From Candidatus Thorarchaeota archaeon (lineage in GTDB: Archaea; Asgardarchaeota; Thorarchaeia; Thorarchaeales; Thorarchaeaceae), in contig JBHLRZ010000032.1 in NCBI GenBank assembly GCA_048882045.1, positions 1-39,745 of the forward strand: a DNA stretch of 39,745 nucleotides. Direction: 5' to 3'. This document shows positions 7,207 through 9,970 of the stretch, piece by piece (the first letter of the stretch is position 1; the number at the start of each line of letters is the position of its first letter). The notes beneath the pieces were generated by a model. It saw nothing but the letters and a program-made list of their open reading frames with translations, was not told the DNA's origin and searched no databases. The position numbers were made by a program, and so were the translations under genes.

Positions 7207-7632
7207 CTACCATTCTTGACCTATCTCGAGTATTTCAAATTCACTCTCATAGAGACCAGGTATACTCTCGATCGTCGACTTGATTGTTTCTTGTTTGCTC
7301 TTTATGTTGTCAGCTGAGAAGTACACTTCATATATGCATCGATTCTGTTCGAAACAAAAGCCGGTTGTGAAGAGAACTTTGAGGTCGTGTTGTTTGAATA
7401 GCTGAGTCATTGTCTGCATTAGGGCTGGATTCACCTTCTCTACTTCTAGTCTTACCCGTGCCCCTCCTTCTCTCATCATGGGTATCAGACGGATTTCTCC
7501 TGACCTCTCGAAGTAGATCACCATTGCAGCCTTCATGTCTTTAAGTTCTGCATTTTTGAAGAAGTCATCTGGAAGGCTAATCTCTTTCTTCTTGTGAACG
7601 TCAGCTATCATTCCCTTTGTAATACCGGCCAC
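7207..7632 (-). CDS. Putative AbrB-like N-terminal domain plus ACT-like domain protein
   Basis: N-terminal IADVHKKKEISLPDDF...G/EIRLIP resembles an AbrB/SpoVT swapped hairpin; C-terminal beta-alpha-beta-beta-alpha-beta pattern (VRLEV..NPALMQTMTQLF..HDLKVLFTTG...IESIPGL). Confidence 0.6.
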   Translation of the reverse strand: MAGITKGMIADVHKKKEISLPDDFFKNAELKDMKAAMVIYFERSGEIRLIPMMREGGARVRLEVEKVNPALMQTMTQLFKQHDLKVLFTTGFCFEQNRCIYEVYFSADNIKSKQETIKSTIESIPGLYESEFEILEIGQEW

Positions 7633-7790
7633 CTAAATCGCCTCTTACCTGTCCTAATGCTTGAAGGTCATTACAGTATTTGAGTCTTTAGCGACTGTTG
7701 CTAAAGAGCAATCTCGTAAAAGCATGCGATGTTCCTTGGGCAGAAACTCATAAATCTGAGAAAATACTCGTGCAGTTTGAGGTTCATATT

Positions 7791-7913
7791 ATGGCGAAGG
7801 AAGGCGGTATCTATGTTTGTGATGTATGTCAACAAGTTATTGAAGTCAAGAAATCAGGGGTTGGGACACTTGTATGTTGCAATCAACCCATGCGACTCTT
7901 TGAAGACGACTGA
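7791..7913 (+). CDS. Stand-alone desulforedoxin (desulfoferrodoxin FeS4 domain) protein, 40 aa
   Basis: YVCDVCQQVIEV....G.LVCCNQPM (CxxC...CC). ATG 7791 preceded by GAGGT. Confidence 0.88.
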   Translation: MAKEGGIYVCDVCQQVIEVKKSGVGTLVCCNQPMRLFEDD

Positions 7914-7931
7914 TCAATGAACACTTGATAA

Positions 7932-7940
7932 TGTTTATAT
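7932..7940 (+). promoter_or_regulatory. Putative TATA box of Rpb5-like copy 1
   Basis: TGTTTATAT, identical to the element upstream of copy 2; GAGGAG SD-like motif downstream. Confidence 0.45.
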
Positions 7941-7988
7941 TCACTTCCTAGGGCGAATCCTAGCCACCGCATCGAGGAGTGTATTTCA

Positions 7989-8552
7989 ATGATTGACTTG
8001 CCCCAATCTGTAATGAAGACAAGAAGTCTTCTAAATCTACGTTCATATTCCATAAGTGAGGTCTTTGAGTATGAGAATAGGTACGTAATGTACCCTGTAC
8101 GCAAGTTTGAAGGAGAATCTCACAAGTATGTTGTTTGGATTTTAAAAGAACCCAAAGTCGTTGGTGTCGCTTTAGTGAGAGACCTATCTCGTGAAATGGA
8201 AGAAACAGAGTCACTCCGAGGAATGCTCGTAGGAGGTAGCCGTTTCACACCTGCTGCTAAAAAGATTGCACGGGCATCAAAAATTGAGCTCATCGTTGGA
8301 AACTATGCTTCCTTTGATCTCTTTCAACATGAGTTAGTTCCACAACACATCATTGCCTTAGATGAAGAGGTTCAGCTGGTCTTGGAACACTATGGTATTA
8401 AAAAGAGTCAGTTACCAAGAATCTTCAGGGATGATCCAGCAGTTAAGGTTCTAGGAGCACGACCTGGTCAGGTCATTCGAGTACAAAGGGAAAGCCCCAC
8501 TGCGGGTAAGGTCTTCTACTATAGACTAGTTGTAGATAGCAGTAGCAGCTAG
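7989..8552 (+). CDS. rpo5: RNA polymerase subunit Rpo5/RpoH with eukaryote Rpb5-like N-terminal jaw domain, copy 1
   Basis: C-terminal HELVPQH...EHYGI.KSQLPRI..DDPAVKVLGARPGQVIRV.RESPTAG..YYRLVV is Rpo5/Rpb5_C. The ~110 aa N-extension has EPKVVGV...GMLV....FTPAAKK, matching the Rpb5 N-domain pattern. Confidence 0.92.
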   Translation: MIDLPQSVMKTRSLLNLRSYSISEVFEYENRYVMYPVRKFEGESHKYVVWILKEPKVVGVALVRDLSREMEETESLRGMLVGGSRFTPAAKKIARASKIELIVGNYASFDLFQHELVPQHIIALDEEVQLVLEHYGIKKSQLPRIFRDDPAVKVLGARPGQVIRVQRESPTAGKVFYYRLVVDSSSS

Positions 8553-8560
8553 AATCGTAT

Positions 8561-8569
8561 TGTTTATAT
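8561..8569 (+). promoter_or_regulatory. Putative TATA box of Rpb5-like copy 2
   Basis: TGTTTATAT in the 47-nt gap between the paralogs. Confidence 0.45.
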
Positions 8570-8599
8570 CAAACGGTTAGCATCGACCCACTTGATTGG

Positions 8600-9184
8600 G
8601 TGTTTTTCACATTGTCAGATAATCCTGAGAAGATAGAGATTCCTTCTATTGTTCTCAAAACACGTTCATTACTTGCTCTTCGAGGTTTCACAACAACTGA
8701 ATTGCTTGAGTACGAAAATCGCTACGCGATGCATCCTACTCGGAAGTCTAAAGATGCTACCTTGAAGTACACTATTTGGATCCTTAAGGAGGCGAAAGTT
8801 GTAGGTGTTGCCATTATTCGAGAACTTGTTAAGGAGATGGAAGAAAACCTCTCCCAGAGAGGAATGCTTGTTGGCGGCGCGAGGTTTACACCTGCTTCGA
8901 AAAAGTACGCGAAAGCTTCTCGTGTAGAGCTTGTTGAGGGGAATTATGCCTCCTTCGACCTATTTGACCATGAGATGGTACCAGCTCACGTGATTGCTGA
9001 GGAAGGGGAAGTCAACATGGTTCTAGAGCATTATGGAATCAACAAGACACATCTTCCTAGAATCCAAGTCAGGGATCCTGCTGCTCGTGTTCTAGGAGCA
9101 AGACCTGGACAGGTCATCCGAGTCGAACGTGATAGTCCAACAGCAGGAAGGACATACTACTATCGGTTAGTTGTTGATTCATGA
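8600..9184 (+). CDS. rpo5: RNA polymerase subunit Rpo5/RpoH with Rpb5-like N-terminal domain, copy 2
   Basis: Gap-free alignment to copy 1 (~65% identity by hand count); HEMVPAH...LPRIQVRDPAARVLGARPGQVIRVERDSPTAG..YYRLVV. Start may be TTG 8612. Confidence 0.92.
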   Translation: MFFTLSDNPEKIEIPSIVLKTRSLLALRGFTTTELLEYENRYAMHPTRKSKDATLKYTIWILKEAKVVGVAIIRELVKEMEENLSQRGMLVGGARFTPASKKYAKASRVELVEGNYASFDLFDHEMVPAHVIAEEGEVNMVLEHYGINKTHLPRIQVRDPAARVLGARPGQVIRVERDSPTAGRTYYYRLVVDS

Positions 9185-9193
9185 TCTTAGCAG

Positions 9194-9970
9194 TCAGTAC
9201 GTTAGGGGCGGAAGCATCAATAAAAATGCAATGAACATCACCAGACAAGTAATCATAGGTAGTGTGATGTTGTCTGTCCCCTTTGGACTCAGAAACTCAA
9301 CAACTGTTCCGGTTATTGCACCTACCAATGCTAAACCTATCATCATAGACCATAGGATGATGCCACCACTCCCGATGAACGCACTACTTGAAATGATTCC
9401 AAACCACCAGAATGCAACAAGTGAACCTATGAAGCCGAAGACAAAGACAGCCAGAGTTCCAGGAATACTCCTGTTTGATCCGAAGACGACTCTAGTGGAG
9501 TTGGCACCATATTTCATTCCAATTGGTGCTGACATTCCATCTCCGAGCATCATTATATGAATGGCAGCTGCTGGAATAAAGTAGAGATCCTGCCAACCTA
9601 TGAAAGTGAAGTACCCTGTAAGTATTGTGATTGAAACCGCATACCAGAAAGGTCCTCTCACACTGTTGTTCTCCAAATCTTCAGGTCGTGCCATGGCTGC
9701 AAAGAACCCACTGAACCGATCCGTGTTTGCCAGTCCTAACATGATAACAAATGTAAGAGCGACCAATGTCGCTACCCATGGATGAGGATAATAAGGCACT
9801 GTCCAAATCGCTGCACCTGCGAATAAATGCACGATTCTCCTAGTGGATTCAGAACCCAAGTTCAATTTCTTTCTTGCAAGGTCTGCAATGGTGAGTACAA
9901 TCACCGCATAGAATACTGCAATGAAGTAGACAATGACATCGCCTAACTCTATCATAAATTCAACTTGCAT
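9194..9970 (-). CDS. CTP-dependent polyprenol (dolichol/phytol) kinase family protein
   Basis: TRRIVHL, GPFWYA, GDGMSAPIG..YG, RSIPGTLA, VEFLSPKGTDNITLP motifs; multi-TM. Confidence 0.85.
   Translation of the reverse strand: MQVEFMIELGDVIVYFIAVFYAVIVLTIADLARKKLNLGSESTRRIVHLFAGAAIWTVPYYPHPWVATLVALTFVIMLGLANTDRFSGFFAAMARPEDLENNSVRGPFWYAVSITILTGYFTFIGWQDLYFIPAAAIHIMMLGDGMSAPIGMKYGANSTRVVFGSNRSIPGTLAVFVFGFIGSLVAFWWFGIISSSAFIGSGGIILWSMMIGLALVGAITGTVVEFLSPKGTDNITLPMITCLVMFIAFLLMLPPLTY

Follow-up and report, generated by a model that had tools for sequence, protein, structure and literature searches.

A tandem pair of two-domain, eukaryote-like Rpo5 genes in a Thorarchaeota genome

Two adjacent rpo5 genes away from the polymerase operon

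The stretch of DNA analysed here, a contig of 39,745 nucleotides from Candidatus Thorarchaeota archaeon (assembly GCA_048882045.1, contig JBHLRZ010000032.1, hereafter the window), carries two adjacent genes for the RNA polymerase subunit Rpo5 (RpoH), the archaeal relative of eukaryotic Rpb5. The genes, designated copy A and copy B, lie on the same strand with a gap of 47 bp, and each encodes an N-terminal nuclease-like domain followed by the assembly domain Rpb5_C (Table 1). A first-pass annotation, made from the DNA letters alone, had described them as gapless paralogs of 187-194 amino acids with about 120 of 183 residues identical, a hand count that proved to be exact, as BLASTP of copy A against copy B gave 120/183 identities, 151/183 positives and 0 gaps (E 4e-94). 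The last ~75 residues of both copies match the Pfam family RNA_pol_Rpb5_C (PF01191; 93.3 bits for copy A and 90.7 bits for copy B, cut-off 23.5) and the NCBIfam RpoH equivalog NF007129 (98 and 95 bits, cut-off 83), in agreement with the earlier statement that both Rpo5 C-domains are intact. All phylum-invariant Rpb5_C columns of a phylum-wide alignment are also kept in both copies. By their C-domain, both copies thus belong to the family at the curated PF01191 and NF007129 thresholds, and we consider their identity as Rpo5 very likely.

The genome that contains the window (G000, with the window as contig C32) comprises 93 contigs and is 93% complete. Rpb5_C matches in it are confined to copies A and B, and a search of the whole genome with this domain found no third or short rpo5 elsewhere. 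The rpoB-rpoA'-rpoA'' operon lies on another contig, C11, away from the rpo5 pair, confirming the view that neither copy stands beside rpoB, and Rpo2 and Rpo1 (A' + A'') are each present in a single copy. The pair is not an assembly artefact, because the two genes are adjacent in 16 of the 23 genomes of the genus, always in the order A then B. The first-pass annotation had proposed looking for a third rpo5 upstream of rpo2, and none was found in the 93%-complete genome. The usual rpoH position directly upstream of rpoB on contig C11 is occupied instead by an open reading frame (ORF) of 558 amino acids encoding a TnpB/Cas12f1-like protein (L039:9540-11216, minus strand; PF07282, 49 bits) and by a second ORF of 70 amino acids that has no family match.

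Table 1 Features of the tandem rpo5 locus in the window (aa, amino acids; BRE, B recognition element)
Feature	Position	Strand	Remarks
rpo5 copy A, two-domain Rpo5/Rpb5-like RNA polymerase subunit	7989..8552	+	ORF, ATG start, 187 aa
rpo5 copy B, two-domain Rpo5/Rpb5-like subunit	8600..9184	+	ORF, GTG start, 194 aa
Copy A N-terminal domain, predicted inactivated Mrr-type PD-(D/E)XK domain, Rpb5-jaw homologue	7989..8303	+	aa 1-105; Mrr_cat match
Copy B N-terminal domain, predicted inactivated Mrr-type PD-(D/E)XK domain, Rpb5-jaw homologue	8600..8944	+	aa 1-115; model and N-only profile
Copy A Rpb5_C (assembly) domain	8313..8531	+	PF01191 positions 1-73, E 6.2e-27
Copy B Rpb5_C (assembly) domain	8954..9172	+	PF01191, E 4.4e-26
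Copy A promoter-like element	7922..7940	+	BRE-like CACTTGATAATG then TATA-like TTTATAT (7934-7940); ~48 nt 5' of ATG
Copy A Shine-Dalgarno-like GGAGTG	7976..7981	+	7 nt 5' of ATG
Copy B promoter-like element	8556..8569	+	CGTATTG then TATA-like TTTATAT (8563-8569); 30 nt 5' of GTG

A nuclease-like N-domain and the jaw of eukaryotic Rpb5

The first ~105-115 residues of both copies match the Mrr catalytic domain (Mrr_cat, PF04471; 27.7 bits for copy A and 28.8 bits for copy B, cut-off 21), as do all 24 of 24 relatives above the Pfam cut-off, and both N-domains have a weaker Pfam match to the NACHT-associated inactive restriction endonuclease (REase) family PF22722. The Mrr_cat matches would favour an active Mrr-type nuclease tethered to the polymerase, but the motif columns make this extremely improbable. 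They were compared in one profile between 66 Mrr-like proteins without Rpb5_C, of which three sampled ones score 107-118 bits against Mrr_cat, and 36 long-Rpo5 representatives together with the two window copies. The catalytic columns of the 66 Mrr-like proteins hold D (74%), D (94%), Q (70%) and K (74%), and all four are replaced in the window, by N40, A43, W60 and L62 in copy B and by N, V, W and L in copy A. The lysine column is hydrophobic across the long-Rpo5 set, and the N-domain alignment contains no invariant acidic residue or lysine; what is retained is the non-catalytic half of the domain, including F-T-P-A-(S/A). Assignment as an active Mrr-type restriction endonuclease was rejected, since the Mrr_cat threshold is passed but the catalytic D...D...(E/Q)xK motif is replaced in both copies. 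By sequence, the N-domain can be classed as an Mrr-type PD-(D/E)XK fold that is catalytically dead. It has the fold and the non-catalytic half VGV..R.L...G..V....FT..A....ELV in common with PF04471 and PF22722 and is, like PF22722, a putative inactivated derivative, whereas it differs from Mrr-type endonucleases in the replaced D...D...QxK and in its fusion to a polymerase subunit domain.

The N-domain is also homologous to Rpb5_N, the jaw domain of eukaryotic Rpb5, as shown with custom profiles rather than with Pfam's model. In a single-sequence phmmer search, residues 56-191 of copy B aligned collinearly with residues 71-209 of human Rpb5, reaching well inside the jaw. A full-length profile of 28 sequences found eukaryotic Rpb5 as its best match (Arabidopsis NRPB5A, 1.1e-36, profile 21-182 against chain 40-205), with short archaeal Rpo5 matched more weakly and over the C-domain only (3e-34). 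Moreover, a profile of the N-domain alone (the N-only profile, 24 sequences taken from DNA references) matched 11 distinct Rpb5 sequences in the PDB, including those of human (6.3e-6), plant (1e-4), yeast (3e-3) and S. pombe (0.016), all aligned at the correct place (chain ~68-116). No non-Rpb5 match appeared there below E 0.4, despite the presence of the Mrr-like structures 1y88, 4f0p and 4oc8. Against 1.84 billion (1.84e9) representative proteins, the same profile reached a vertebrate Rpb5 at 2.3e-7, a protein that Pfam confirms as carrying Rpb5_N (135 bits) and Rpb5_C, and hhalign of the N-domain against Rpb5_N gave an E-value of 4e-5 at a probability of 70%. The motif FTPAAKK of copy A (FTPASKK in copy B) aligns with human MTPSAKQ, that is, with the eukaryotic TPSA motif, through which the eukaryotic jaw contacts downstream DNA (PMC6690254), and T97 is one of only three invariant residues in the N-domain alignment. 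The first-pass annotation had given an alignment with yeast Rpb5. Its EPKVVGV...FTPAAKK stretch was recovered by HMMER against human, plant and yeast Rpb5, and its KTRSLL..RG(F/Y) stretch is in register, though not significant alone.

The relationship extends to predicted structure. An AlphaFold2 model of full-length copy B (predicted local distance difference test, pLDDT, 86) retrieved in Foldseek, as its top 34 matches, full-length Rpb5 chains of Pol I, II, III, IV and V together with the African swine fever virus (ASFV) homolog, over ~200 columns at E 1e-13. The full-length template modelling (TM) score against Rpb5 is only about 0.42, because the linker (residues 117-124) is undefined; with a linker pLDDT below 50, the inter-domain geometry of the model is unreliable as a guide to the placement of the jaw. 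The N-domain of copy B modelled alone (pLDDT 87) was compared by VIA with Mrr-like folds (AF1548, Z 10.9; NucS, Z 10.0; AspBHI, Z 8.6) and with Rpb5 jaws (Arabidopsis NRPB5A, Z 9.1, root mean square deviation (rmsd) 3.7 Å over 101 aligned residues; ASFV RPB5, Z 8.2). Being about equally close to both, the N-domain is placed between the two families. The first-pass annotation had named, as a finding that would count against it, an Mrr-type nuclease unrelated to Rpb5_N, but this opposition is a false dichotomy, because Rpb5_N is itself a dead PD-(D/E)XK fold (PMC3424549, PMC551604), and the domain in the window appears Mrr-like, inactive and Rpb5_N-like together. The N-domain of yeast Rpb5 has been described as a textbook PD-(D/E)XK fold without the catalytic residues (PMC551604), and a 2012 census of the PD-(D/E)XK superfamily lists Rpb5_N as group 69, found in 'Eukaryota' only (PMC3424549).

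A convergent origin, in which Asgard archaea and eukaryotes fused different Mrr-type domains to RpoH and the likeness to Rpb5_N is one of fold only, has several observations in its favour, and these weigh against common descent of the two jaws. Pfam's RNA_pol_Rpb5_N model (PF03871) matches neither copy at E-values up to 1 and nothing across the genome at E-values up to 10, and among the relatives it matches one of 24, at E 0.15 only. The N-domain profile reaches true Mrr_cat proteins at about 1e-10 to 1e-6, equal to or better than eukaryotic Rpb5 (2e-7), and the isolated N-domain is structurally as near to Mrr-like nucleases as to Rpb5_N, with AF1548 and NucS placed slightly above Rpb5 by VIA. 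We nevertheless regard convergence as improbable, since the two proteins agree in domain order, linker position, the catalytic residues lost and the TP(S/A)A motif, since their alignment is collinear over both domains, and since the significant PDB matches of the N-only profile are all Rpb5, although Mrr-like structures are available there. In addition, eukaryotes are placed with or within Asgard archaea. The comparison with RNA_pol_Rpb5_N proposed in the first-pass annotation therefore divides, with Pfam's model unmatched and the custom N-only profile and Foldseek both finding Rpb5. Shared ancestry with the Rpb5 jaw is in our judgement likely, and this jaw, which makes up half of eukaryotic Rpb5, probably arose in archaea.

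Compared with eukaryotic Rpb5/RPABC1 (PF03871 + PF01191; PDB 1dzf, 7eu0_E, 8uhd_E), the window proteins present a putatively dead PD-(D/E)XK jaw, a hinge and Rpb5_C in the same order, have a similar length (187-194 against 205-215 amino acids), align collinearly over ~140-165 residues, carry TP(S/A)A at the position of the DNA-contacting TPSA and match structurally over the full length. They differ in remaining below the Pfam Rpb5_N threshold while still being recognisable as Mrr_cat, so that they are not plain members of PF03871, and nothing in them corresponds significantly to the first ~40 residues of the eukaryotic jaw. Furthermore, eukaryotic Rpb5 serves Pol I, II and III, whereas the window copies would serve a single archaeal polymerase. 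These results support the central claims of the first-pass annotation: that the Rpo5/Rpb5 genes are two in number, full-length, two-domain and eukaryote-like, that they lie outside the rpo operon, and that their N-extension shares homology with Rpb5_N.

Distribution, duplication and promoter-like elements

The distribution of the long form was surveyed in 250 other genomes of the phylum, sampled from 27 families. Matches spanning the N-domain occur in at least 17 of the 27 families, while the large family f9 and a few small families gave weak matches only (E 1e-7 to 1e-13), fitting C-domain-only proteins. In the four short-form genomes inspected, a gene of 79-91 amino acids lies directly upstream of rpoB, whereas rpoB is near none of 11 long-form loci (flanks of ±2 kb), and each of the genomes holding these loci has that single Rpo5 match only. 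The two-domain form is thus common among Asgard archaea, being found in the majority of families, and it is associated with a gene that has left the rpo operon. The first-pass annotation had taken an archaeal Rpo5 of ~80 amino acids with the C-domain alone to be typical, which describes the four short-form Asgard genomes, but the two-domain form is not unusual in the phylum, and what is special to the window is the tandem pair rather than the two-domain form. The canonical archaeal Rpo5/RpoH (~80 amino acids; PDB 8cro_H, 4qiw_H, 2waq_H) is a clear ortholog of the C-domain (single-sequence E 1e-20, rmsd ~1.6 Å over 74 residues) and has the same predicted docking on Rpo1''. It differs in being without the N-domain and directly upstream of rpoB, as confirmed in the four short-form Asgard genomes, whereas the gene in the window encodes both domains, occurs in two copies and occupies a conserved locus of its own.

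Further forms of polymerase genes were also observed. Rpo5 genes of 378-481 amino acids carry at least two tandem Mrr-like N-type domains before one Rpb5_C (L033:1953-3335, minus strand, in G039 of another Asgard family; P0140, P0165, P0169), and one N-type repeat of P0140 has a weak match to Pfam Rpb5_N (E 0.009). In G025, G026, G031 and G032 (loci L080, L085, L086 and L089), the Rpo1'' match falls in an open frame of ~1283-1384 amino acids, some with one in-frame stop, which suggests that in several other Asgard families rpoA' and rpoA'' are fused or nearly so; in the genus of the window (L066-L079) they are split.

Tandem pairs are also present in four other genera of the family, and eleven genera are single-copy. 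In a maximum likelihood tree of about 190 columns, the A clade (support 96/88) and the B clade (100/98) of the genus of the window are sisters at 96/84, placing the duplication at the base of the genus. The single-copy members G001, G007, G013 and G017 fall inside the A clade, which indicates secondary loss of B. In genus g25 the two copies also pair as sisters, though less firmly (91/68), pointing to a separate duplication there. No other genus has copies that carry the residues diagnostic of A and B in the genus of the window. One older duplication, with all upstream copies orthologous, was not rejected by the approximately unbiased (AU) test (p 0.42). The dating of the duplication by a tree, as the first-pass annotation had suggested, thus leads to the base of the genus in the best tree, with an older event not rejected. 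Two genomes of the same genus, G024 and G226, have three Rpo5 matches each; the third match in G024 is a 48-amino-acid fragment beside the B copy at a contig end, and is therefore probably due to an assembly break rather than to a third gene.

The order of the locus is the same in single- and double-copy genomes of the family, with a 141-amino-acid ORF, a desulforedoxin-like gene, rpo5, a 258-amino-acid membrane protein and a CinA-like gene, and this synteny indicates that the duplication occurred in place. A CTTGACAATG-TTTATAT element stands about 45-48 nt before the ATG in nearly all of the genus's A-type genes, as well as in the majority of single-copy rpo5 genes of the family, and GGGGTG or GAGGTG is conserved at the Shine-Dalgarno-like position of A-type genes in orthologous loci. 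B-type genes have a TATA element (TTTATAT, once TTTATA) ~30 nt before GTGTTT in 15 of 18 cases, and most of these elements are preceded by TTGACAATG or a near variant. Each copy accordingly has its own conserved promoter-like element, a putative promoter by position and conservation, and the presumed core promoter was evidently copied together with the gene. The distance of 30 nt between the TATA-like element and the GTG of copy B suggests a leaderless mRNA or one with a very short leader.

Directly upstream of copy A, at 7698-7913 (plus strand), lies the gene for a 71-amino-acid desulforedoxin-like protein (Desulfoferrod_N, 46.7 bits); in 39 related loci of the family it stands next to rpo5 as well. 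The TTG start is uncertain, an internal ATG being possible too. The 141-amino-acid protein (7207-7632, minus strand) and the 258-amino-acid multi-pass membrane protein (9194-9970, minus strand) have no Pfam match and are syntenic in 33 and 41 loci of the family, respectively.

Possible polymerase isoforms and their significance

Both copies appear to be maintained by selection. Ratios of nonsynonymous to synonymous substitution (dN/dS; Nei-Gojobori, orthologs with dS < 1.5) are 0.02-0.18 in the A clade and 0.014-0.16 in the B clade and are similar in the same genome pairs; the values come from other species pairs of each clade, as the pairs of the window's copies with those of the nearest relative, G004, did not pass the dS filter. 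Such low ratios in both clades indicate that neither copy is decaying, and the relaxed selection that the first-pass annotation had named for checking is not seen, both copies being under purifying selection. In a model of the complex between Rpo1'' and copy B, the interface score ipSAE was 0.77 against 0.00 for the best control, with at least 91% contact agreement and a partner pLDDT of at least 81. Among solved complexes 58 of 80 attain the mark passed by this pair; among mismatched pairs 2 of 110 do. The pass is to be read as likeness, not binding, because Rpo5-Rpo1 complexes have already been solved. The confident Rpo1'' contacts all lie in the linker and C-domain of copy B, with predicted interface residues 115-192. 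At the predicted contact positions copies A and B are identical in 26 of 30 cases, compared with 32 of 50 (64%) in the rest of the C-domain and 62 of 103 (60%) in the N-domain. In the model, therefore, the docking surface is conserved and the A/B differences lie on exposed surfaces. Of the proposed modelling of each copy with the C-terminal region of Rpo1, the part with copy B was carried out and passed, and copy A is covered by its 26 of 30 identical contact residues.

We favour, with moderate confidence, the explanation that the two genes are tandem paralogous Rpo5 (RpoH) genes of the eukaryote-type, two-domain kind, and that polymerases containing A or B would be isoforms. In each protein, a short flexible linker joins a dead Mrr-type PD-(D/E)XK N-domain, the homologue of the Rpb5 jaw, to the assembly domain Rpb5_C, which is universal. 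The C-domain of A or B would dock on the sole Rpo1'' site, so that a given polymerase would contain either A or B, and the N-domain would lie at the lower jaw beside downstream DNA, as in Pol II, using the FTP(A/S)A motif. Both genes would be transcribed from their own duplicated TATA/BRE promoters, copy A into an mRNA with a short leader bearing a Shine-Dalgarno-like sequence and copy B into a nearly leaderless mRNA. Transcriptional or translational control could then set the ratio of A to B and, with it, the proportions of two isoforms whose exposed surfaces differ slightly. Because Rpo1 and Rpo2 are single-copy, copies A and B would have to compete for one site, and the single Rpo1 makes two alternative isoforms plausible, though a little less likely than not. 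A would be the core copy, because it is always present, and B an accessory one, because it is lost in some members of the genus.

A number of observations argue against functionally distinct isoforms, which the first-pass annotation had suggested might differ in their jaw surfaces. Only three columns are fixed differently between the two clades (A4L/B14I, A16N/B26A and A152V/B162A), and the A and B jaws show no difference in net charge, which together make the evidence for functional divergence thin. B is missing, and hence dispensable, in G001, G007, G013 and G017, and the docking model, being of a textbook pair, may reproduce solved structures. The few fixed differences, the unchanged charge and the loss of B in several members of the genus would fit redundant or dosage-related duplicates, in which Rpo5 is interchangeable and the pair is kept for expression level or robustness. 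The occurrence of pairs in four other genera and of a single copy in 11, which suggests easy gain and loss, would agree with this as well. Redundancy nevertheless seems rather unlikely to us, since a divergence of ~35% has been held under strong purifying selection across species with saturated synonymous sites, and since the A/B differences are concentrated off the docking surface. B has in addition a conserved, clade-specific N-terminal extension of ~10 residues, which is the only other diagnostic feature between the copies, and a different promoter-to-start spacing.

The dispensability of B in some genomes and its own promoter-like element would also be compatible with a role of one copy, most likely B, outside the polymerase, where it might bind DNA or act in regulation as a free protein, or serve as a decoy during assembly. 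This we consider very improbable, because none of the phylum-invariant Rpb5_C residues is missing from B and its predicted Rpo1'' contact residues are retained, because it is the very copy in the docking model that passes by likeness to solved complexes, and because its dN/dS is as low as that of A.

Isoforms of the favoured kind can be compared with plant Pol IV/V NRPD5/NRPE5 and trypanosomatid RPB5/RPB5z (PMC6690254), where more than one intact, constrained Rpb5-family gene is likewise present per genome. Those paralogs serve distinct catalytic cores, giving different polymerase forms, whereas there is one Rpo1/Rpo2 core here, and any isoforms would differ by Rpo5 alone. Rpo13 of Sulfolobales (PMC13257274) is likewise an archaeal addition near Rpo5 on the downstream-DNA side and a possible functional analogue of the jaw extension; it is, however, small, helical and unrelated, has a gene of its own and is not a PD-(D/E)XK domain fused to Rpo5.

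Other components of the transcription machinery were noted in the same genome. G000 encodes at least six full TFB/TFIIB paralogs, every one with two cyclin repeats and two of them in tandem on contig C26, besides one single-repeat match (matches at C1:33548-34093, C1:47636-48190, C11:86913-87455, C26:27444-27998, C26:28502-29056, C46:13431-13982 and C2:51593-51805). In eukaryotes, the Rpb5 jaw is in contact with downstream DNA and also interacts with regulators, among them TFIIB, Bud27/URI and RSC. Because eukaryotic Rpb5 reportedly binds TFIIB, a pairing of TFB paralogs with Rpo5 jaws may be entertained as an idea. The sole Rpb6/RpoK match of the genome (C16:15712-15795, plus strand) is a weak one of 22.6 bits, short of the cut-off, within an open frame of 232 amino acids, fitting the long, N-terminally extended Rpo6 of Thorarchaeota (PMC13257274).

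A search of open-access papers and preprints turned up neither a jaw-bearing archaeal Rpo5 nor Rpo5 paralogs. A 2018 review describes archaeal RpoH as lacking the jaw domain, and a 2026 survey of archaeal small polymerase subunits, in which a Thorarchaeota Rpo5 was modelled, makes no mention of a long form (PMC13257274). The architecture PF01191 + PF04471 is already present in public domain annotations, and the gap is thus one of recognition and not of hidden sequence. The most far-reaching account would be that the eukaryotic jaw is an inactivated Mrr-type domain fused to RpoH in archaea before eukaryogenesis, with the Asgard proteins as surviving intermediates still recognisable by Mrr_cat, and that duplication in Thorarchaeota, possibly repeated, allows one core to run as two isoforms; taken as a whole, we offer this account tentatively.

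In summary, the window carries tandem genes for a two-domain Rpo5 that, by linking Mrr nucleases to Rpb5_N, would explain in concrete terms where one part of all three nuclear polymerases came from. The long Rpo5 would join the list of eukaryote-like features of Asgard archaea, and the tandem pair is what would be expected as a first step towards subunit-defined polymerase variants. If true, the pair would represent a prokaryotic precedent for the specialisation of polymerases through small-subunit paralogs.

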